The notes under the pieces were generated by a model that worked only from the letters and a program-made list of their open reading frames with translations, was not told where the DNA came from and searched no databases. The position numbers and the translations under genes were made by a program. From contig CAZUOM010000002.1 in assembly GCA_964621305.1 (NCBI GenBank), positions 73,733 to 137,732 of the forward strand: a stretch of DNA of 64,000 nucleotides. The letters run 5' to 3'. Source of the stretch: an uncultured Gammaproteobacteria bacterium (lineage in GTDB: Bacteria; Patescibacteriota; Microgenomatia; UBA10105; UBA927). Of the stretch, positions 13,919-61,550 are shown piece by piece (position 1 is the first letter of the stretch; every line of letters begins with the position of its first letter).

Positions 13919-14650
13919 ATGAACAGGAAGAAAACGCAACAGGTTATTGAGCTTCTTAAGAAAGAATATCCCAACGCAAAGATAGTCCTCAAGTTTAGTA
14001 ACCCGTGGGAACTTTTGGTAGCGGTGGTTTTATCAGCCCAATGCACAGACGCGGTAGTCAATAGGGTGACAGAGAAGCTTTTTGCCAAATACAAAACCCT
14101 TGATGGCTATCTAAAGGCAGACATAAAAACCTTCGAACAGGAGATAAGATCCACAGGCTTTTACCACAACAAAGCGAAAAATATTTTGGCCGCGGCAAAA
14201 CTCGTCAAGGAAAAATTTGGTGGCGAGGTGCCAAGCACGATGAGCGAGCTTTTGACGCTTCCCGGTGTGGCGAGAAAAACAGCAAACATCATTTTGGGCA
14301 ACGCGTTTAACATTATAGAGGGCATCGCTGTCGATACCCACGTGTCGCGCCTGAGCCAGCGCTTGCGGCTGGTTAATGTAGACACAATCGGCGGGAAGAA
14401 AGTTATTTTTTTCAAAAGGGGTCCCCTTGCAGCTTTGCAAGGGGACCCCTTGAAGAGAGAGATCGTAGATTATAAAAAGGACGCCGACCCGGTCAAAATA
14501 GAACGCGAGCTGATGGCGGTCGTGCCCAAACCAGATTGGTTCAAGCTCACGTATTTGTTGATCGATCACGGCCGGGCAATCTGCAAAGCCCAAAATCCCA
14601 ACTGCAGCGCCTGTGTCCTTAATAAACTTTGTCCGGCGTCACGGCTTTAA
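13919..14650 (+). CDS. nth: endonuclease III (Nth) carrying an in-frame ~36-aa insertion encoded by a palindromic element
   Basis: Start chosen at MNRKK (13919). LSAQCTD, LPGVARKTANIIL, VDTHVSRLSQRL and a C-terminal CKAQNPNCSACVLNKLCP 4Fe-4S loop. The insertion lies between the HhH-GPD core and the FeS loop and contains a 16-bp perfect inverted repeat. Confidence 0.85.
   Translation: MNRKKTQQVIELLKKEYPNAKIVLKFSNPWELLVAVVLSAQCTDAVVNRVTEKLFAKYKTLDGYLKADIKTFEQEIRSTGFYHNKAKNILAAAKLVKEKFGGEVPSTMSELLTLPGVARKTANIILGNAFNIIEGIAVDTHVSRLSQRLRLVNVDTIGGKKVIFFKRGPLAALQGDPLKREIVDYKKDADPVKIERELMAVVPKPDWFKLTYLLIDHGRAICKAQNPNCSACVLNKLCPASRL
14415..14454. repeat. palindromic in-frame element AAGGGGTCCCCTTGCA-gctt-TGCAAGGGGACCCCTT
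   Basis: Perfect 16-bp inverted repeat with a 4-nt loop inside the nth coding sequence. A near-identical copy lies in trpS at 60308-60350. Confidence 0.9.
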
Positions 14651-36169: not shown

Positions 36170-36709
36170 ATGTCGATCTACACCCGTACCGGTGACGACG
36201 GAACGACCGCGCTTTTTGGCGGAAAGAGGGTCTTAAAATGCGAAGATCTCGTGGATGCCTATGGTTCTTTAGATGAGCTCAATTCGTGGGTTGGATTCAT
36301 CGCCTCGCAGAGTAAAGAACAGAGCGAGAAAAAATTTCTTCAAACAATACAATCAGACCTTTTTACCATTGGGAGTACGCTGGCCGGATGGAAGGGGGAT
36401 ATAACACAACTGGGCAAACGCGTTATAGAAATGGAACAATGGATCGACCGGATGGAAAAAGTCCTGCCAGAACTTACGAACTTTATTCTTCCCGGCGGGT
36501 CAACCAACGGAGCACGAGTTCATTTGGCGCGAAGCGTTTGCCGGCGGGTTGAACGAAAAATTGTTGCGTTGAAGAAAAAACAAGAGGTTGATCTATCTAT
36601 TATTGAATATCTTAACCGTTTTTCGGACTTGCTATTTACTCTGGCGCGAATTATAAATAAGGACGCAAACGTACCAGAAATAATTTGGAATAGTAGAAAA
36701 AAAGCTTGA
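36170..36709 (+). CDS. PduO-type ATP:cob(I)alamin adenosyltransferase
   Basis: MSIYTRTGDDGTTALFGGKRVLKCEDLVDAYGSLDELNSWVG is the PduO-family N-terminus. Confidence 0.85.
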   Translation: MSIYTRTGDDGTTALFGGKRVLKCEDLVDAYGSLDELNSWVGFIASQSKEQSEKKFLQTIQSDLFTIGSTLAGWKGDITQLGKRVIEMEQWIDRMEKVLPELTNFILPGGSTNGARVHLARSVCRRVERKIVALKKKQEVDLSIIEYLNRFSDLLFTLARIINKDANVPEIIWNSRKKA

Positions 36710-36877
36710 TTGGGGGAATCGTGGTGCAATCCCACGGCTGTGCCGCAACTGTATAGCCAGACTACCCAATCACGCGTCATCCCAGCATCACCAGAATGTG
36801 CTGGGTAAACCTTCGAGCAAAGGGCAGTTTTTATACGCGCCTTCTCGCTCGAGGAGGTTTTTTGATGGGAAATAGAT

Positions 36878-45348: not shown

Positions 45349-46215
45349 CTAGAGCTCCTCGAGTTTTACTCTCTCTGCTGGCTGGCCCTTGATGAACTCG
45401 AGGTATTTTTCCGTCGTCGAGAGGCGCTTGTGGCCGACGAGTTTACTTAGGGTGGTGATTGGCGTTCCCGCCATCAGGTGGTGGGCGATGAATGTGTGAC
45501 GGAGGTCGTTAACCTTGGCATCCTCAATGCCTGCCACTTTGAAATATCGGTCTATAGCGGTCCGGATATTACGGATAAGAAGAGGCTTGCCGGTTTTGGT
45601 AATAAAGAGTGCTTTACTCTTGATATTATCGCCGCGTATTATGACATAACGAGCGATTGCGTCCTTGGCTGCTTTGTTTAGCGGGATGCTTCGTTCCGCA
45701 TGCCCCTCTTGCGCGGCGATGTGGAGCTGGTTGTCTTTGATATCTTCAGTTGCCAAGTTAGCTAGTTCGCCGATACGTATACCGGTTTGCAAAAACAGCT
45801 CGACGATGGCATAAGTACGAATGTCTCCGCGGCAGGCATCACGAAGCGCCCGGTATTCCAGTTTGGACAAAATGCGGGGCGGCTTGATCTCATACTTGGG
45901 ATGCTCAATTTCTCTAGCCGGATCTACAGCGATAGCACCGCCTGACTTGAGGAACCGGAAAAAAGTTTTGATCGAGTTGATTTTGCGAGAAATGGACTTG
46001 GCCTTGTAATTGTCGCTTCCTAGTTTTTTGATGAATGCCTCTAATTCGTCCAGTGATACATCTAGTACAGCTTTTACCCCCATATTCTCGAGGAATGAGA
46101 CTAACTGTTCAATATCTTTGTGATATGCTACGATTGTGGCTTTGGCACGGCGGCGGCTACCGAGGTAGTCGGTAAATTGGGCATGTGCGGCTCGAAGGTC
46201 GGGTGTAGTAGCCAT
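45349..46215 (-). CDS. tyrosine site-specific recombinase (XerC/XerD-like)
   Basis: 288 aa. N-terminal core-binding domain and catalytic region with R...HxxR...Y (DLRHTFIAHHLMAGTPITTLSKLVGHKRLSTTEKYLEF). Confidence 0.85.
   Translation of the reverse strand: MATTPDLRAAHAQFTDYLGSRRRAKATIVAYHKDIEQLVSFLENMGVKAVLDVSLDELEAFIKKLGSDNYKAKSISRKINSIKTFFRFLKSGGAIAVDPAREIEHPKYEIKPPRILSKLEYRALRDACRGDIRTYAIVELFLQTGIRIGELANLATEDIKDNQLHIAAQEGHAERSIPLNKAAKDAIARYVIIRGDNIKSKALFITKTGKPLLIRNIRTAIDRYFKVAGIEDAKVNDLRHTFIAHHLMAGTPITTLSKLVGHKRLSTTEKYLEFIKGQPAERVKLEEL
45362..45396. repeat. right copy of the direct repeat, lying in the 3' coding end of the recombinase gene
   Basis: See 44598-44632. Confidence 0.85.
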
Positions 46216-49176: not shown

Positions 49177-50973
49177 TTGATGAGAATCAAACCAACGGTT
49201 GATCCTGTGGTTGGACCAACTGATGATACACACTGGGGACAGGTTCTTATTCTCCCAAATGCCTATGGTGTTATTGAGGTTTTTGATCTCGATGGAGCTG
49301 CGCGCGATATCGGACTTCGTCTCTTGAGTACTCTTTCCGATCAGCTGGCTGAGCCAGTCGTAAGCCTTATAGACGTTGAAACGTGTGTTCAGCGGGTGGT
49401 CGATCCCAAACTGACAAGCCTCATCGTTCTTGTGCCTGTAGGAGTGGTGGCGTATCTAGTCTGTAAAGATAGCGGCGCCGTATATTTGAAGCGCGATGGA
49501 AGGATCGCAAGATTGTTAGCTAATACAGGATCAGTTTCCGGAAAGCTTGTTGTTGGAGATACATTACTTGTTATGACAAAGCGATTTGTAGAAACCATAG
49601 GGGAAGCAGAGATCGCATTAATATTTGATCACGAAGACCCAAAGACCATCTCTGAGAAACTGACAGTACAACTATCAAGATCAGAAAGCGCGGCTGGTGC
49701 TGCTGGTTTGGTTTTCGGTGTTAGGAGTCTCATGCCCATGGAGGGCGAAGAGAGCGTATCAATGGTACCAAAAAAAGCGCTAGCGGGACGCGTCGGGCGC
49801 ATGATCCACAAGACAATGCCAAAAGCAACTCACTTTTGGCATACTGTGCGTGATCGAGCGCGAAGGAAAAACAGTGCGATTTTAGCCATTGCAATTTTTT
49901 CTTTCATACTCTTTATTGGGAGTGTACTATTGGGTGTGAAAAAACAGCTGAGGTTAAGGGTCGACACGCAGATCGTTGGAGCAATGATTGAAGCTCAGCA
50001 TGCATTCAATGAAGGGGTGGCACTTTTAGATCTTAACTCCGTAAAGGGCAGAGAGCGACTGAGTCAAGCAAAGAGGATTCTGGATCCCTTGGCTGCCACG
50101 GTTTCTGCAAAAACAAAAACCGGCAGGCACATCGTGGCGCTTTCGAAGGAAGTTGATAGTCGGCTGAGTCTGGCCATGCAGGTTCATCGTGGAGAGCCTC
50201 AGTTATTTTATGATACTGGGCTTCTTAAAAAGGGTGCCGTCGCATCCTCGGTTGCCCTTGTATCAGAGCGCATGGCGTTGCTGGATGCCAGCGGAAAAAC
50301 TGTGTTTTTTCTTAACTTGGTATCAAAAAACGGTCAAATCGTCGCTGGCGGTGAACAGTTTTCCGGTTCCCGTTTCGTCGCCATGCAAGGAGACAAGGTT
50401 TATGTGCTCGTTGCCGATGGCATTCATATGATCCGTACAGAAGACAAAAAGACCGAGCCGCTCATTGTCAAAAGAGACAGCGAGTGGGGCAGCATTGCTG
50501 ACCTTGTCGCTTATGGAGGCAATCTCTATCTTCTCGACCTTGCCCGCGGCCGGATCTGGAAATATGTGTCAACCGGAGCAGGTTTCAGCGAGCGCCGCGA
50601 ATACTTAAATCCCGATACTCTTCCAGATTTTACTTGGGCGACTACCATGGTTATTGACGGATCGGTGTGGCTGGGAACCAACGAGGGCAAAATCCTACGA
50701 TTTACCCAGGGACAGGAACAGACGTTTTTGCCCAAAGGGGTTGCGCCGCCCCTTGGCAGAGATCTTGCCGTCTATACAAGCGACGAGGCATCGCGTGTCT
50801 ACATTTTAGACCGAGAGAATAAGCGGGTGGTTATGCTTGAAAAAGACGGCACGTATCTGTCTCAATACGTTTGGGAAGGCGCTATCAAACCAACACAATT
50901 TGTTGTTTCTGAAATCCTCAAAACTATTTTTCTCCTTTACGATGGTAAAGTTTACAACCTGGAGCTCAAATGA
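49177..50973 (+). CDS. hypothetical 598-aa membrane protein (central TM; C-terminal repeat-rich, possibly beta-propeller-like extracytoplasmic domain)
   Basis: Long ORF, TM helix SAILAIAIFSFILFIGSVLLGV, repeated G..YLLD/GS.WLGT motifs. Confidence 0.55.
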   Translation: MMRIKPTVDPVVGPTDDTHWGQVLILPNAYGVIEVFDLDGAARDIGLRLLSTLSDQLAEPVVSLIDVETCVQRVVDPKLTSLIVLVPVGVVAYLVCKDSGAVYLKRDGRIARLLANTGSVSGKLVVGDTLLVMTKRFVETIGEAEIALIFDHEDPKTISEKLTVQLSRSESAAGAAGLVFGVRSLMPMEGEESVSMVPKKALAGRVGRMIHKTMPKATHFWHTVRDRARRKNSAILAIAIFSFILFIGSVLLGVKKQLRLRVDTQIVGAMIEAQHAFNEGVALLDLNSVKGRERLSQAKRILDPLAATVSAKTKTGRHIVALSKEVDSRLSLAMQVHRGEPQLFYDTGLLKKGAVASSVALVSERMALLDASGKTVFFLNLVSKNGQIVAGGEQFSGSRFVAMQGDKVYVLVADGIHMIRTEDKKTEPLIVKRDSEWGSIADLVAYGGNLYLLDLARGRIWKYVSTGAGFSERREYLNPDTLPDFTWATTMVIDGSVWLGTNEGKILRFTQGQEQTFLPKGVAPPLGRDLAVYTSDEASRVYILDRENKRVVMLEKDGTYLSQYVWEGAIKPTQFVVSEILKTIFLLYDGKVYNLELK

Positions 50974-51413
50974 CCATCATTAACCGCCGCGCCACACATG
51001 ACTACACTATTCTTGACCGCTTCGAGGCGGGGATCCATCTCGTGGGCGCTGAAGTAAAATCTCTTAAAGGCGGCCATGCGTCACTTGACGGTGCGTTTGT
51101 CCGGCTGATTGGTTCTGAAGCATACCTGGTCAACGCTCAAATTTTTCCATACATTTACGCGCGTCCTGAGGGCTACGACCCAAAGCGCACCAGAAAACTT
51201 CTCCTTCATAAAAAAGAAATCATGAGCTTGAGAGGAAAAATTGAAGGAGCAAATTTGACTCTCGTCCCCCTTTCTTGGTATACTAGAGGGCCCTTAGTCA
51301 AGCTCGAAGTTGGCCTAGCCCGCGGCAAGAAGCAGTTCGAAAAACGCGAAGCAAAGCGTCATGCCGACATTAAGCGAGAGCTGGAGCAGGATTATCGGGG
51401 GAAAGTAAAGTAA
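50970..51413 (+). CDS. smpB: SsrA-binding protein SmpB
   Basis: INRRATHDYTILDRFEAGIHLVGAEVKSLK is a classic SmpB sequence. Confidence 0.9.
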   Translation: MTIINRRATHDYTILDRFEAGIHLVGAEVKSLKGGHASLDGAFVRLIGSEAYLVNAQIFPYIYARPEGYDPKRTRKLLLHKKEIMSLRGKIEGANLTLVPLSWYTRGPLVKLEVGLARGKKQFEKREAKRHADIKRELEQDYRGKVK

Positions 51414-51418
51414 ATTTT

Positions 51419-51811
51419 GGGGATGAGTGATTCGACGGGGAGAGCACGTTAAAAACTGCAAGCCGGCGATGACAAAAGAGCCGTAAAAATTTGTCAAATC
51501 TAACTGCTAATATTATTAGCGAGGAAGACGAGCAAGCGCTTCTTGCGTTAGCTCTCTCCCGACGTCAAGCACGATTGGCTTTTGCCTATCAAGCGTAAAC
51601 GTCCATCTCTAAAGTTGTTTTCTCGGTGACTCTCTTGAGGTGTAAAAACAGCCGAGGCGTCAGGAGTCAATTGACCGATTGATTCCGGAGTAAAAGGTCA
51701 AACCATTGTACGGTTTTTGTCCGTTTTTATCGTATAATGTATCAAACGGACTACGCTTGTAGATGTTTAGATGTGCTCCTTCGGACCCGGGTTCATTACC
51801 CGGCATCTCCA
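51419..51811 (+). ncRNA. ssrA: tmRNA (ssrA)
   Basis: 5' GGGGATGAGTGATTCGACGGGG (canonical GGGG.UG...GAUUCGACGGGG). 3' tRNA-like end GGACCCGGGTTCATTACCCGGCATCTCC-A with acceptor pairing GGGGATG/CATCTCC including the G3-U70 Ala identity pair. About 393 nt, immediately downstream of smpB. GCT resume codon at nt 88. Confidence 0.85.
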
Positions 51812-51813
51812 CA

Positions 51814-52437
51814 GTGGGAATTTTAGATTTTATTTTTCCGAAGCGCTGCCTGGGGTGCGGGAGGACCGGAAAATATTTTTGTGACAGGTGCAGAAGAGAG
51901 ATCAGAACAATTGAAACGCGCGAGAGGGCAACAGGCAGCCTCGACGGCTTGACAAGCTTTTTTCGTTACGACAGTCTTGTCAGACAAGCAATAAAAGCGC
52001 TCAAATATAGCTTCGTCTCCGACCTTGCTCACGAATTTATTTCTCTTATCCCACAATCATCGTTTTTTCGTCTCCCTAAGTACTCTGTTCTCGTGCCGAT
52101 TCCATTGCATTCGGCACGGTTGCGGCATCGCGGTTTTAACCAAGCAGAACTTTTAGGAAATTTGATTGCACAAAAGCTATCTATTCCGATGCGAACTGAC
52201 ATATTGGTCCGTACGCAAAAAACCACTCCCCAAGTAGAAATGAAGGATAGAGAAAAAAGGCTAAAAAATATGCATAATGTTTTTTCGGTTAGCTCTTCAA
52301 CAATTCAACAATTTAACAATGCAACAATTTTTCTTTTCGACGATGTCTTCACCACCGGTGCCACCATGCGCTCAGCAGCAACCGCGCTTAAGCGGAACGG
52401 GGTAGGATTTGTTTTGGGTATCACGATGGCACGGTGA
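51814..52437 (+). CDS. comF: ComF-family phosphoribosyltransferase (competence protein ComFC)
   Basis: GTG start taken so the gene does not overlap tmRNA. ...ILDFIFPKRCLGCG...CDRC is the Zn-finger N-terminus. PRT motif IFLFDDVFTTGATM. Confidence 0.7.
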   Translation: MGILDFIFPKRCLGCGRTGKYFCDRCRREIRTIETRERATGSLDGLTSFFRYDSLVRQAIKALKYSFVSDLAHEFISLIPQSSFFRLPKYSVLVPIPLHSARLRHRGFNQAELLGNLIAQKLSIPMRTDILVRTQKTTPQVEMKDREKRLKNMHNVFSVSSSTIQQFNNATIFLFDDVFTTGATMRSAATALKRNGVGFVLGITMAR

Positions 52438-55378: not shown

Positions 55379-55423
55379 CCAAATATGCTTGCACTGAGGA
55401 TCTGCCAGCCGGCGGAGGCCAAG

Positions 55424-55495
55424 TGCCAGCGGCAGGGATTGAACCTGCTACCCTCGCCTTATGAAGACGGTGCTCTACCAATGAGCTACGCTGGC
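55424..55495 (-). tRNA. tRNA with CAU anticodon (Met or Ile2-lysidine type)
   Basis: Reverse complement GCCAGCG-TA-GCTC-ATTGGTA-GAGC...ttCATaa...GCAGG-TTCAATC-CCTGC-CGCTGGC-A. The anticodon stem is only 4 bp with a U-G pair. Confidence 0.65.
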
Positions 55496-55923
55496 TCAGC
55501 CTCATTGTATGAAACTTGAGCTAGAAAGGCAATTCTGGTATAGTAGTGATGTTCATTTACCGCGGGGTAGTGTACAGTTGCACAGAAGGCTTAAGTATGG
55601 GCTCATCGGTAAGAAATTACTGTATGATAATTCGGCTATATCGGTGAAACCCGGATATTATGACTTTGTCACCGTCCGGGCAATACCGAGGAAAGATCCC
55701 GAGTAGAATCGAGGGAAATCCGTAGAGACTATACGCCGAACCCTTCGTCGCTTCGCTCCTCAGGGCAAGTCCTGTCGAGCGAAATTGACAAGGTGATGAT
55801 ATAGTCCGACACTCTCAGTAATGGGAGCCCGTGAAGCAGAACAAGTACGCTTCAGGGTAAAAAACACGTGCATAATCTTCTAGGCTGGGTGCGACTCCCA
55901 GCCCCGCAACCCAGGCTATTAAA

Positions 55924-55954
55924 CAAAAAACCACTCATTATGAGTGGTTTTTTG
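55924..55954. terminator. bidirectional intrinsic terminator hairpin AAAAAACCACTCAT-ta-ATGAGTGGTTTTTT
   Basis: Read directly: perfect 13-14-bp stem flanked by an A-run and a T-run. Confidence 0.75.
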
Positions 55955-56090
55955 TTCCAGCCTGGTGGGGTCGGTCCCGCCGATGGCGAAGCCATAATGG
56001 CGGGATAATGACCCCAACTCTTTTTCTTCCAGCCTCATCGGGTCGGTGTGCGCAAAGCGCACATAATGACCCGAACAGGATTACAATAAC
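55954..56090. repeat. two tandem hairpin repeat units sharing TTCCAGCCT..GGGTCGGT..ATAATGACCC flanks with different internal stems
   Basis: Unit 1 GGGGTCGGTCCCGCC...GGCGGGATAATGACCCC. Unit 2 CGGGTCGGTGTGCGCaaaGCGCACATAATGACCCG. Confidence 0.6.
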
Positions 56091-58108: not shown

Positions 58109-58598
58109 GCTATATCCTCCTTGTTATAACGAATTATAACATGACGTATTTGACAAAGTCAAGATTTACGATATACTCCTTTTCACAATTGAATAAAAGC
58201 GTTGAGGAGGCGTGGATGGAGCCTCTGAGCTGACGCTAATCACGTACGGAGGTGAAACCGTAAAAAGTCTGTCAACGGGTGTCGTACTAATGGAGCTCGT
58301 CAAGAATGAGGTTATCCTCAACTGACGTCCCGCTTACGCGGGATTATTTGTGGGTAACAAAGCAAGGTGGCAACGCCATAGCAGGCCCTTGCAAGCCGTC
58401 TACGTTTATCGTGGATGATTTGCAAGGGCTTTTAGGTGGTAGTTGCAAATCCGCCAGCCGACGGAGAAGCTTACTGCCACCTATGGTGAGTAGCGAAGCG
58501 ACGTACCATTTATTGGGTGAGTAGTTTAGTTGGAAAAATGTCTGTTTCACCTTCGATTCTCGCAAAGAGTCTGTTACAGAGATATTATGGAGGAATAC

Positions 58599-58989: not shown

Positions 58990-59274
58990 ATGGCACGGAG
59001 AGTATATACACTAGAAGATCATTTGAGAGAATCCTTAAAAGACCCTGAGTTTCGCAAGGCATGGGAAGCCAGTGAAGTAGAGTACCAACTGTCCCGGCAG
59101 ATTATCGCCCAGCGTTTGCGAAGAAAAATGACGCAGGGGCAGCTTGCACAAAAAGCGCAGACGACACAAGCAGTTATTTCTCGCATAGAGCGAATGACTG
59201 AAAACGTGTCAGTAGAGCTCCTCAAGAGGATTGCTGGAGCATTTGGATCACGATTAAAAGTCGGATTTGAATAA
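58990..59274 (+). CDS. higA: HTH XRE-family antitoxin (HigA-like)
   Basis: LSRQIIAQRLRRKMTQGQLAQKAQTTQAVISRIE. Confidence 0.75.
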   Translation: MARRVYTLEDHLRESLKDPEFRKAWEASEVEYQLSRQIIAQRLRRKMTQGQLAQKAQTTQAVISRIERMTENVSVELLKRIAGAFGSRLKVGFE

Positions 59275-59284
59275 AGGAAACCTT

Positions 59285-60733
59285 ATGAAACGATTTATTT
59301 CTGGTATTACGCCGAGCGGGGATGGGAGTTTACATATTGGCAATTATTTGGGTGCCGTGCGGCAGTTTATTGATCTTGCTCGATCAAATGAGACGTATCT
59401 CATGGTTGCAGACCTTCACGGCTTGACGACGATCCAGGATAAACAGCAGTTGATTCATAACATCGAAACATTGGTCCTCAATGAATTGGCACTCCTGCGC
59501 GGGTTTATGACAGCGAAAGAATTTAGCAAAATTGTCTTTTTTCGCCAATCTGATGTACTCATGCACGCCGAGTGCCAGTCGATTCTCAACAACGTCACCC
59601 CTCTGGGGTTACTTAAGCGCGCGCACGCGTACAAAGATAAGCTTGGTAAGGATACAGTGAAGGACGACATCAACGTTGGCCTCTTTTCCTATCCGATGCT
59701 CATGGCTGCAGACATACTCCTCTACCAGCCGGATCTAGTGCCGGTTGGTAAAGATCAAAAGCAACACATAGAAATAACGCGTGATATCGCCGATCGGTTC
59801 AACAAAATTTTTCGAGCAAAAGTCTTTAAACTTCCTGAGCCGTATATTCCAGAGGAAGTTGCTGTGGTATTGGGGACAGACGGGAAGCGCAAGATGAGTA
59901 AATCCCTCGGAAACATTATTGCTATGTTTGAGCCGGAAGAGGTCATCAAAAAACAGGTGATGGAAACCTACACGGATCCGGCCCGAGCTCACGCCACCGA
60001 TCCAGGGCACGTAGAAGGGAATATGGTGTTTGCATATCTGGATTTTTTCGGAGAACCGCGTAGCGTTGCGAAACTAAAAGAAAAATACCGTCGCGGAACC
60101 GTCGCGGACGTAGAGGTGAAAGAGTATTTGTTTAAAACTTTAATTGAGTATTTTGCTCCAGCCCGCAAAGCATATGAGCAGTTAAAGGCTAATCCAGTAA
60201 TGGTCAAAAAAATTCTTGCCGACGGAGCCCAAAAGGCCAGTGCGGTTGCCAGTCAAACCATGATGGCGGTGCGAGAGGCGATAGGGTTGACGAACAAGTA
60301 CTCAATAAGGGGTCCCCTTGCGGGGCCATCTTTGCAAGGGGACCCCTTGCAAAAAACGATTAGTATCGATGAATTTGCGCGGGTGGAGGAACGGGTGGGG
60401 AAGGTAATCGAGGCGACGAATGTCGAAGGGAGCGAGAAGCTCATTCGATTGGTGGTTGATTTTGGCCCCGCCTTCGCTGAAGCTACGGCGGGCGAGGGAA
60501 AGCGGATTATTTTCACCGGCGTGCGGGGATTTGGTTATACGCCGGAAGATTTTCTCAACAAACAATTTTTGTTTGTCACCAATCTTGCGCCGAGAAAGAT
60601 GCCCTCCTACGTTGAAACTCCGGCGGGTAAAATGGGGGAAGAATCACAAGGCATGATTTTAGCCGTAGACGGACCTGGTAAACCAATCTTTGTTTCCGCC
60701 GAAGAAATGCCATTGGGAGCAAAAGTCAGATAA
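59285..60733 (+). CDS. trpS: tryptophan--tRNA ligase fused to a C-terminal EMAP/Trbp111-like tRNA-binding domain, with in-frame palindromic insertion in the linker
   Basis: Start MKRFISGITPSG..HIGNYLGAV (HIGH-type) and KMSKS. C-terminal ~110 aa VGKVIEATNVEGSEKLIRLVVDFG... is the OB tRNA-binding domain. Confidence 0.85.
   Translation: MKRFISGITPSGDGSLHIGNYLGAVRQFIDLARSNETYLMVADLHGLTTIQDKQQLIHNIETLVLNELALLRGFMTAKEFSKIVFFRQSDVLMHAECQSILNNVTPLGLLKRAHAYKDKLGKDTVKDDINVGLFSYPMLMAADILLYQPDLVPVGKDQKQHIEITRDIADRFNKIFRAKVFKLPEPYIPEEVAVVLGTDGKRKMSKSLGNIIAMFEPEEVIKKQVMETYTDPARAHATDPGHVEGNMVFAYLDFFGEPRSVAKLKEKYRRGTVADVEVKEYLFKTLIEYFAPARKAYEQLKANPVMVKKILADGAQKASAVASQTMMAVREAIGLTNKYSIRGPLAGPSLQGDPLQKTISIDEFARVEERVGKVIEATNVEGSEKLIRLVVDFGPAFAEATAGEGKRIIFTGVRGFGYTPEDFLNKQFLFVTNLAPRKMPSYVETPAGKMGEESQGMILAVDGPGKPIFVSAEEMPLGAKVR
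60308..60350. repeat. palindromic in-frame element AAGGGGTCCCCTTGC-ggggccatcttt-GCAAGGGGACCCCTT inside trpS
   Basis: Arms identical to the nth copy. Encodes IRGPLAGPSLQGDPLQ. Confidence 0.9.
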
Positions 60734-60740
60734 TGAAATC

Positions 60741-61550
60741 ATGGAAGGCGCTCGCGGCCATTTAGCATCAGGAGAAATACTCGGAAATAACGCGTCTTTA
60801 ATACCAGTTTACTCAATGGAATATCTTCATGGTTCTTTAGCGGTCAATAAACGGAATCATGAATTAAGAACTCAACTACAACAGATGCGTAAAATCGCCT
60901 CGACGATGGGTGAAAGTCTTGCTGCATTATTGGGAGGAGAAACCAAGCTGCATAATCCAATCTACCCATACGAGGTAGACTACAATTCTGTTTTAGATGA
61001 ATTTCGCAAAAGAAATGTTGCTTCCGTGACCCGGTTACCTAGAGGAAAAACAATGGCATTTACAATCCAAACCGGATGGGATTATATAGACTTAATAGGA
61101 GCATATCCTAATGCAAGGTGGAAATTTTACATTTCTTGCATACAAGATACGGACGTCCGCCGCGCTTTGGGAAAAAAATTCGTTCGGATGCTCATTGGTG
61201 ATGTATTCAAATCGCATCTAACATTACAGATAAAAAGCATGGATCATACCTACGACAGCCTCGATCTTTATACATGGCACCCAAAAGAACTTTCACAAAT
61301 TCTAATAAAATTATATACCAGCCATAAGGATATGTTTATTGATGCACCCCGTGTATTTCAACGAATAATAGATCCATCGGTGCCAGTAAACCAGATCGGG
61401 TTAGTACAAGAGCCCGCGGGAGGAAAGGGCGGTTCTCATTCAAATAGAATGGGACGACTAGGAAAAGCACTAGATGAAGGACGTTCTTTTGAGGAGGCTT
61501 GCAAGTTTGCGAGAGTCAAGCAGTTGGCGCCGTGGGAAGTAGAGATCTGA
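60741..61550 (+). CDS. hypothetical 269-aa protein
   Basis: ORF immediately after trpS. No recognised motif. Confidence 0.5.
   Translation: MEGARGHLASGEILGNNASLIPVYSMEYLHGSLAVNKRNHELRTQLQQMRKIASTMGESLAALLGGETKLHNPIYPYEVDYNSVLDEFRKRNVASVTRLPRGKTMAFTIQTGWDYIDLIGAYPNARWKFYISCIQDTDVRRALGKKFVRMLIGDVFKSHLTLQIKSMDHTYDSLDLYTWHPKELSQILIKLYTSHKDMFIDAPRVFQRIIDPSVPVNQIGLVQEPAGGKGGSHSNRMGRLGKALDEGRSFEEACKFARVKQLAPWEVEI

Follow-up and report, generated by a model that had tools for sequence, protein, structure and literature searches.

An in-frame palindrome in a patescibacterial tryptophanyl-tRNA synthetase gene as a candidate copy of a dispersed family of hairpin repeats

The TrpRS locus and its palindrome

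We analyzed a window of 64,000 nucleotides (GenBank assembly GCA_964621305.1, contig CAZUOM010000002.1, positions 73,733 to 137,732), titled as an uncultured Gammaproteobacteria bacterium and placed by GTDB in the Patescibacteriota, with a focus on a palindrome in its gene for tryptophanyl-tRNA synthetase (TrpRS). This synthetase is fused to a C-terminal tRNA-binding domain, and its open reading frame (ORF) extends upstream to a TTG at 59267. The linker between the two parts carries a perfect inverted repeat of 42 bp (60307-60348), composed of two 15-nt arms with 100% complementarity around a 12-nt loop (Table 1). The original prediction had placed a palindrome here at 60306-60352, with arms identical to those of a copy in the endonuclease III gene (nth) and a longer loop; the palindrome, the identity of the arms and the loop difference (12 nt against GCTT) are all confirmed, and only its outer bases prove to be flank. 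Inside each arm lies a near-palindromic 13-mer, AAGGGG-W-CCCCTT, W being T in the left arm. The element is free of stop codons in all six frames and in frame with the TrpRS ORF, and the tryptic peptide predicted for the insert is GPLAGPSLQGDPLQK.

Chance is excluded as the origin of the TrpRS and nth palindromes. The window holds nine matches to the 15-mer arm with up to three mismatches against 1.6 expected, and none of 100 shuffles reached nine. The core GGGGWCCCC occurs exactly four times in the 64 kb, these being the four arms of the two copies, and the paired AAG-N7-CTT hairpin pattern was recovered in 0 of 200 shuffles. Perfect hairpins with a stem of at least 10 bp number 10 in the window, compared to about one expected, and the TrpRS and nth copies are the strongest G+C-rich ones among them. 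The predicted fold of the element has an energy of -36.4 kcal/mol as RNA (z = -6.2) and -19.0 kcal/mol as DNA (z = -5.4), and both strands fold much better than shuffled controls (z -4.7 to -8.1). No T-run follows the stem on either strand, so the hairpin is not an intrinsic terminator; consistent with this, no terminator was predicted in 59800-60900 (0 sites), and no promoter was predicted at the element. Rfam 15 at gathering thresholds, run over the whole window, returned nothing at the element, and a relaxed search of 60200-60450 (E up to 10) returned generic hairpins only, the highest-scoring of which reached 28 bits where its gathering score is 62.

Both Pfam and AlphaFold2 bear out the predicted location between the TrpRS body and the C-terminal OB-fold domain. 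In the AlphaFold2 model, built on 72 homologues with a mean predicted local distance difference test score (pLDDT) of 82.8, the synthetase body closes with helix 304-333 and the OB-fold starts at residue 361. The pLDDT falls below 50 at residues 338-346 and 349-359 (347-348 excepted), and segment 338-359 has almost no secondary structure, containing only a three-residue helical turn at 354-356. Low pLDDT and scarce secondary structure at the insert point to a flexible linker that tolerates an extra loop, as had been proposed, and the 120 best TrpRS homologues agree, the linker being the most length-variable part of the protein among them (an insert-free example reads YSFFEYQRPAAGKTISID). The insert is most likely neutral for TrpRS, lengthening a disordered tether by 14 residues. 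The best named TrpRS homologues belong to Candidatus Gottesmanbacteria, and the fusion to tRNA_bind is standard across that clade (458-465 aa), sometimes with an added YbaK-type domain. Comparison with relatives, which the original prediction had recommended, therefore supports the variability of the linker and shows the C-terminal domain to be the norm of the clade, not a peculiarity of the source genome.

A second short repeat family was seen in the same gene. Its two members, CCCGCCTTCGCTGAAGCTACGGCGGG at 60467-60492 (peptide GPAFAEATAGEGK) and CCCTCCTACGTTGAAACTCCGGCGGG at 60602-60627 (peptide PSYVETPAGK), are identical at 21 of 26 positions, and both are in frame within tRNA_bind, in a part where most orthologues are shorter.

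Table 1. Coordinates of the TrpRS gene, the parts of its palindrome, and the sister copy in nth.
Feature	Position	Strand	Remarks
TrpRS fused to tRNA_bind (Trbp111/EMAP-like OB-fold) domain, 482 aa	59285-60733	+	Identical to database protein P0001
tRNA-synt_1b catalytic domain	59291-60154	+	Pfam, residues 3-290
5' flank ctcaat	60301-60306		
Left arm AAGGGGTCCCCTTGC	60307-60321		Contains near-palindromic 13-mer AAGGGG-T-CCCCTT
Element-encoded peptide RGPLAGPSLQGDPL	60308-60349	+	TrpRS residues 342-355
Loop GGGGCCATCTTT, 12 nt	60322-60333		
Nested palindrome TTTGCAAGGG-gac-CCCTTGCAAA	60331-60353		Right arm and its flanks
Right arm GCAAGGGGACCCCTT	60334-60348		Exact reverse complement of left arm
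3' flank gcaaaa	60349-60354		A-rich mirror of 5' flank, no T-run
tRNA_bind domain	60392-60715	+	Pfam, residues 370-477
Endonuclease III (nth)	13919-14650	+	Pfam HhH-GPD, HHH, EndIII_4Fe-2S
Sister copy, 36 bp, identical 15-nt arms	14416-14451		In frame in nth; encodes RGPLAALQGDPL

Orthologous copies at the TrpRS site

TrpRS orthologues from independent assemblies (loci L028, L029, L031 and L039) carry the element at the same codon position. The copy of L028 (Logan; 76-78% protein identity) reads AAGGGGgCCCCTTGC-GGGGCCCGCTTT-GCAAGGGGACCCCTT, and that of L029 and L030, from two further runs, reads AAGGGGgCCCCTTGC-AGATCGGGGCCC-GCAAGGGGcCCCCTT. L031 and L032 (JGI and ENA) hold a decaying copy with three arm mismatches, and L039 (ENA), AAGGCGTCCCCTTGC...GCAAGGG(A)GACGCCTT, has a 1-nt bulge. 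These copies contradict the concern, raised along with the original prediction, that the palindrome is an assembly chimera; they also show that it is not private to this genome. A protein identical to the TrpRS of the window is recorded from two contigs (NCBI and Logan).

The arms stand out from the gene around them. Between the window and L028 the TrpRS genes share 72% of nucleotides overall and 46% at third codon positions, and the same codon is used for just 48% of identical residues, while the arm bases are identical at 29 of 30 positions. Arms so much better conserved than synonymous sites indicate constraint or renewal acting on the DNA itself. The central stem pair is T:A in the window, G.A in L028 and G:C in L029, a plausible series that, judged from these sequences, looks like a mismatch later compensated. 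The loop of L028 matches that of the window at 10 of 12 positions. The L029 loop matches the L028 loop at only 3 of 12 positions directly and at 9 of 12 as its reverse complement, which indicates that the loop flipped between lineages; the L031 loop is also roughly the reverse complement of that of the window.

The sister copy in nth and covariation of its arms

The hairpin in nth has a 16-bp stem if the TGCA/TGCA extension is counted, and it occupies the tip of a beta-hairpin-like segment specific to the clade, IGGKK..F-K...VDYKKDADP. In five nth orthologues (protein identity 64-73%), picked for their palindromic-looking peptides, the same codon bears a hairpin of 36 bp, in each case with a perfect stem of 15 bp but with differing arms: AAGAGATGGTCTTGC (L033), AAGGGGTGGCCTTGC (L034), AAGGCGTCCCCTTGC (L035), AAGGCCACCCCTTGC (L036) and AAGGGGACGCCTTGC (L037). 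In the alignment of these five with the window, 90 of 90 cells pair and 7 of the 15 pairs have changed on both sides (13 cells), with no one-sided and no G-T states, a result that shuffles and slid registers came nowhere near. The base of the stem (AAG/CTT) and its top (CTTGC/GCAAG) are invariant, and positions 4-10 vary. All 15 nth proteins with the pattern R-x-x-L-A...Q-x-x-x-L (family A; nine distinct arm pairs) are codon-compatible with perfect arms; over all possible arm pairings, the control, compatibility was found in 16 of 49.

The G-to-C variant AAGGCGTCCCCTTGC occurs in both a TrpRS (L039) and an nth (L035). Concerted evolution within a genome was considered as the source of this identity and set aside, since L039 and L035 could not be traced to one genome. 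On L024 a canonical and a variant copy lie 1.5 kb apart on one contig.

Hairpin families at the two insertion sites

Among the 120 best homologues, the TrpRS linker contains either nothing, or this element and its variants, or other hairpin-like inserts. The element or a variant is present in P0003, P0035, P0060, P0020, P0051, P0112, P0113, P0116 and P0120. The closest relative, L040 (79%), instead carries CCCTCCTTCGTTAAAGCTACGGAGGG, flanked by an 11-bp direct repeat (GCGACAAGCGA/GTGACAAGCGA), and L041 has a long imperfect hairpin. At the nth hairpin tip at least four insert types are interleaved on a poorly resolved tree; the neighbor-joining tree built from 119 nth orthologues has a star-like shape, with identities of 64-73%, and it therefore permits no firm conclusion on whether the inserts arose once or repeatedly. 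The nth site also hosts a sister family (RPGLGGHQRPGLE), which has the form AAGGCCAGGCCTT-11 nt-AAGGCCTGGCCTT and the same AAGG-NNWNN-CCTT design, and variants with GGTGG/CCACC look like intermediates between it and the canonical family. P0145, with a solo arm (RPGLE), stands next to P0124, with two arms (RPGLGGHQRPGLE). Because the arms are also near-direct repeats, inter-arm recombination can remove one of them, as in P0145. Both sites, the linker of TrpRS and the hairpin tip of nth, are hot spots shared by several families of hairpins, either through repeated invasion or through diversification of one ancient insertion.

A dispersed family in Patescibacteria

The exact arms were scanned in 185,579 species genomes and in JGI metagenomes, which yielded 27 loci; genome-derived and metagenome-derived contigs from several studies supply the exact-arm copies. 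Four of the loci (L010, L012, L017 and L018; high-G+C, actinobacterial or unclassified) are without the 15-bp architecture or its context, and they were treated as unrelated hairpins and left out of the description. Family members have the architecture AAG-N7-CTTGC, a loop of 3-16 nt, and GCAAG-N7-CTT, for a length of 33-46 bp. With the canonical N7, GGGWCCC, each arm is a near-palindrome in its own right. The stem ends sharply at 15 bp (AAG/CTT) in nearly all copies, and the central bases are complementary in all 31 copies listed.

Identical 15-nt arms are found in at least 12 unrelated genes of several genomes, most copies being inside long ORFs. According to Pfam, exact-arm copies lie in frame in LepA, MiaA, a Wzy_C (Wzy-type) ligase, a GT2 glycosyltransferase and two unassigned ORFs; also in frame are the copies in RecJ, between DHH and DHHA1, in a CopA-type P-type ATPase, where the actuator domain begins, and in a class-V aminotransferase, whose domain is split in two. 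Three reading frames are used across the copies (RGPLA; QGDPL/QGVPL; KGTPC). With three frames and different peptides, what the copies share is the DNA and not the peptide.

One metagenome-assembled genome (MAG), CAZPNL01, has at least seven copies with a common loop of 16-17 nt, TGCAGTTTTTTGTGACC, and these are mostly intergenic; the remaining copies of the exact-arm scans have copy-specific loops of 3-7 nt. Four of the CAZPNL01 copies (L001:5400-5445, L005:5446-5488, L011:5404-5449 and L015:4529-4571) have roughly 20 bp of flanking sequence in common on either side. In these four the hairpin is the core of a composite palindromic repeat of about 90-110 bp with conserved, partly palindromic flanks, and in L001 the loop is flipped relative to the composite flanks. 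On sequence grounds, we read the CAZPNL01 copies as the signature of recent copying within a genome. The canonical element had 0 matches in IMG/VR viral contigs, and thus there is no sign there of a phage vector.

The family is treated here as patescibacterial. The element is present in L001, L003-L006, L008, L011, L013, L015 and L016, which are titled "uncultured Gammaproteobacteria" or "Pseudomonadales", titles that look like mislabels. Named relatives of the zwf gene of CAZPNL01 are found only in Gottesmanbacteria/Patescibacteria, and L008 and L016 have a locus in common with L026, a Hainich groundwater 0.1-um contig. A claim of spread across phyla, suggested by six "uncultured Gammaproteobacteria" MAGs that carry the element, was dropped, their titles being treated as mislabels.

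Further short repeats and inserts were noticed at some of these loci. L022:7198-7242 contains three adjacent AAGG-N5-CCTT 13-mers (AAGGTCCGACCTT, AAGGTCCGTCCTT and AAGGACGGACCTT) in a small tandem/inverted cluster. The CopA ORF of L009 holds further odd short inserts, e.g. GGRMPALSEVEGDSPEVKG and RGGEPHGRGPLVGGHGAAEWQDP, as does the LepA ORF of L002, e.g. LDIGDCKLEIANS. Proteins of the candidate phyla radiation (CPR) may accumulate several such mini-inserts.

Flanks and target preference

Flank statistics were compiled over 16 independent insertion sites, or 32 sides. Positions -6 to -3 are pyrimidines in 26-30 of the 32 sides, with T at -5 in 25 of 32 (P ~6e-9), and the 3' flanks are purine/A-rich, whichever strand is read, the mirror image of the T-rich 5' side. 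This bias stems either from a preferred target or from a weak outer portion of the element. Removal of exactly AAGG...CCTT restores a plain-like sequence both in nth, FFK|KREIVDY (cf. the orthologue TFKKGTKIIVDY), and in TrpRS, YSMQKTISID. The flank bias together with the plain sequence left after removal suggests insertion into a T-rich/A-rich pseudo-palindromic target.

Interpretation of the palindrome

We consider it probable that the 42-bp palindrome is a copy of a non-autonomous, hairpin-forming selfish repeat family of Gottesmanbacteria and other Patescibacteria. Copies would probably land in T-rich/A-rich pseudo-palindromic sites, as the flank bias indicates, by way of a putative single-strand hairpin handled by an enzyme in trans; this mode of movement is proposed by analogy with REP/RAYT or IS200/IS605 relatives. 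Copies that are free of stops and keep the frame would simply be translated as a Gly/Pro-rich loop. Intragenic copies sit in surface loops, hairpin tips and interdomain linkers, and presumably only copies in such places survive. Once fixed, a copy is inherited vertically, as seen among the TrpRS and nth orthologues. The observed covariation of the arms could be maintained by a symmetrizing process at the DNA level, namely hairpin-templated correction or template switching, renewal from active copies, or both, while the loop mutates and at times flips, as it did in the lineages above. That G-T states are absent and that flipping is indifferent to strand speaks for a process acting on DNA, rather than for selection on a hairpin in the mRNA. 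Some copies decay (L031 with its mismatches, L039 with its bulge), as expected of a selfish element.

Several observations weigh against a selfish family. No direct repeat or target-site duplication was found in the flanks of 24 copies, and no pair of filled and empty alleles was found at high nucleotide identity. In several intragenic copies the distance from AAG to CTT is 34, 35 or 37 bp, which blurs the ends of the insert. No transposase or other mobilizing gene was identified, and a crude motif scan of the 83 ORFs of the 64 kb gave no credible signature of RAYT/Y1 (YxxNP/HUH) proteins or of 5-methylcytosine (m5C) methyltransferases. Copy density is low, with two copies per 64 kb in the window and about one per 20-30 kb in related loci. 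The choice of nth orthologues by their peptides brings a selection bias into the covariation alignment, which the codon-compatibility test removes only partly. The coexistence of canonical and variant copies in L024 means that simple homogenization within a genome is not the whole story. Finally, a selected functional hairpin would equally be expected to keep its stem perfect and compensated across a protein divergence of about 30%, and its arms better conserved than synonymous sites.

A tyrosine recombinase at 45349-46215, XerC/D-like by eye, was considered as a partner of the element, and nothing ties it to the repeat.

More tentatively, the copies might represent a new class of patescibacterial mobile element, minimal hairpins of some 36 bp that would be the shortest in-frame mobile insertions known, defined by a conserved AAGG...CCTT-GC clamp and a freely co-varying center. 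Such hairpins would be recognized by a structure-specific enzyme, as DNA hairpins or cruciforms, would account, jointly with the sister families AAGGCCWGGCCTT and CCCGCCTTCG...CGGCGGG, for many lineage-specific loops and linkers of CPR proteins, and would repeatedly re-invade hot spots such as the TrpRS linker and the Nth hairpin tip.

A cis-acting structure under selection is the main alternative, though a rather unlikely one. It could act as RNA (a translational pause, a site for an RNase or RNA-binding protein, or an mRNA stabilizer) or as a DNA site for a dimeric or structure-specific protein that recognizes AAGG-N5-CCTT. Selection would fit with a hairpin that both TrpRS and nth retain at an unchanged codon position at 64-79% protein identity, compensated and with 100% pairing at nth, as well as with the conservation of arm nucleotides far beyond that of synonymous sites. 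An invariant stem base (AAG/CTT) and top (CTTGC/GCAAG) around a co-varying middle is typical of protein-recognized hairpins, and the TrpRS copy lies exactly at a domain boundary. However, the host genes are unrelated (TrpRS, Nth, LepA, RecJ, CopA, MiaA, membrane ligases), one MAG has intergenic copies, and most TrpRS and nth orthologues are without the element or have a different hairpin family at the same spot. The decay of the L031 and L039 copies, the lack of an Rfam match and the lack of a predicted terminator also argue against a selected structure. RNA-level selection in particular is disfavored by the absence of G-U/G-T intermediates among the 13 compensated cells, and by the flipping, in other lineages, of the loop together with a G.U extension that exists on the sense strand only.

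Short inverted repeats are known to be created and perfected by template switching. The palindrome could thus have arisen locally, as a template-switch inverted duplication, or have been selected for its peptide, RGPLA...LQGDPL, with the identity to nth due to convergence or gene conversion. Both copies in the window do share a frame and encode near-identical peptides, the arms are near-direct repeats, and the solo-arm P0145 beside the two-arm P0124 speaks for local rearrangement. We nevertheless find this improbable and largely refuted by the recurrence of identical arms in at least 12 unrelated genes, several genomes and three frames, by the seven or more copies with a common loop in one MAG, and by the placement of the peptide in a disordered, hypervariable linker.

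Still less likely is a relic of an intergenic terminator, read through after trpS fused with a free-standing gene for the tRNA-binding domain. The position of the hairpin exactly at the junction of the two domains fits this idea, which is contradicted by the lack of a T-tract on either strand, by flanks (T-rich 5', A-rich 3') that are the opposite of those of a bidirectional terminator, by the universality of the fusion in a clade where most fused orthologues have no such hairpin, and by the presence of the same element mid-domain in nth, CopA, LepA and others. An assembly or library artefact, i.e. a chimeric fold-back read of the kind that can yield perfect short palindromes in amplified libraries, or an adapter-like hairpin, is excluded on comparative grounds, as judged from copies at two sites of one contig, both in frame and without stops, an identical protein on two contigs, orthologous copies with their own substitutions in Logan, JGI, ENA and NCBI assemblies, and compensated variants, which an artefact could not produce.

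Comparison with known elements

The selfish family proposed here resembles Rickettsia palindromic elements (RPEs) and repetitive extragenic palindromes (REPs) in behavior and is a member of neither. Like RPEs, the copies are dispersed palindromes of a reduced-genome bacterium that lie in frame within conserved or essential genes and add a peptide while the protein remains intact; they proliferate and decay, and they are predicted to form a stable hairpin (15 of 15 arm positions complementary). RPEs (Ogata et al. 2000) are about 105-146 bp long, as tabulated in PMC3184786, and the present element, at 33-46 bp (11-14 codons; 42 and 36 bp in the window), is some three times shorter and falls outside that size. 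It differs further in its host phylum, in arms that are each palindromic, and in the strict Watson-Crick compensation of arms among orthologues. Given a Gottesmanbacteria-like host, common descent with Rickettsia RPEs is implausible.

REP doublets known as REPINs consist of two small palindromes in inverted orientation that form a larger hairpin. REPs themselves are 20-40 bp palindromes, extragenic by definition, with a GTAG or CGTC tag at one end (PMC3733652). The element shares with REPs and REPINs its size class, a conserved stem with a variable loop, the doublet-hairpin layout and non-autonomy. In contrast, its arms begin with AAGG, its flanks follow YTYYNY, and no GTAG/CGTC was found at the ends of 24 copies. 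Both window copies and most others are intragenic, only the CAZPNL01 subfamily being mainly intergenic; element density is much lower than in classical REP hosts, and no REP-associated tyrosine transposase (RAYT) was seen in the crude scan of the 64-kb window.

[quoted passage not shown] They have terminal inverted repeats around a core and target-site duplications, and measure tens to a few hundred bp, up to 400 bp (PMC3184786). The present element differs in being a single hairpin of 33-46 bp, with no duplication in the flanks of 24 copies.

Mitochondrial hairpin elements are also known from coding regions, including the GC clusters of yeast, the double-hairpin elements of Allomyces and the "byp" elements of Magnusiomyces. 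The byp elements are skipped by the ribosome, whereas the element described here is open in frame and presumably translated. Coding palindromes of up to 284 bp are found in Nematomorpha (PMC6649704), and repetitive hairpin-forming elements in sponges (PMC2800124). All are short G+C-rich hairpins that invade compact genomes, including protein genes, with both arms translatable; being organellar, they are analogues only. TIGR-Tas arrays, whose 36-nt unit is similar in size, were considered and dropped, since the copies are solitary rather than tandem. Full-text literature searches returned no description of such elements in CPR/Patescibacteria.

Other features of the window

A match to the group I intron model over its full length (RF00028, 62 bits) at 55582-55828 (+) adjoins a tRNA-Met gene at 55423-55495 (-). 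Nearby, at 55922-55956, a perfect 16-bp hairpin, AACAAAAAACCACTCA-tta-TGAGTGGTTTTTTGTT, is preceded by an A-run and followed by a T-run; it looks like a bidirectional terminator, unrelated to the element. The aptamer of an adenosylcobalamin (AdoCbl-II, cobalamin) riboswitch was detected at 36704-36775 (+) with 40.4 bits, just over the gathering score. The transfer-messenger RNA (tmRNA) gene lies at 51419-51814 (+; 108.6 bits), with an apparent smpB, assigned by eye, just upstream at 50970-51413. An imperfect inverted repeat at 58385-58429, GCCCTTGCAAGCCGTCTACG / CGTGGATGATTTGCAAGGGC, is 80% complementary and has CCTTGCAAG-like motifs; it is located in a region without a convincing ORF, upstream of a Gp49/HTH pair.

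Implications

Genomes of CPR/Patescibacteria are tiny, gene-dense and usually described as repeat-poor. If the proposed selfish family is real, selfish DNA of the Rickettsia type in protein genes recurs in a second, unrelated group of reduced-genome, host-dependent bacteria, and here its hairpins lie in essential genes, among them those for an aminoacyl-tRNA synthetase, base-excision repair, a translation factor, a recombination nuclease and a metal pump. The family appears to be undescribed, as do its nested architecture, the compensated changes in its evolution and the hot spots in CPR proteins. On the practical side, the hairpins are markers of strain and lineage, and they can mislead gene callers, since ORFs in alternative frames pass through them. 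The strict Watson-Crick compensation of the arms offers a natural system in which to separate selection on structure from hairpin-templated mutation. The family would also give a mutational source for many of the short, clade-specific insertions in CPR proteins, insertions that complicate homology detection, structure prediction and phylogenetic alignment.

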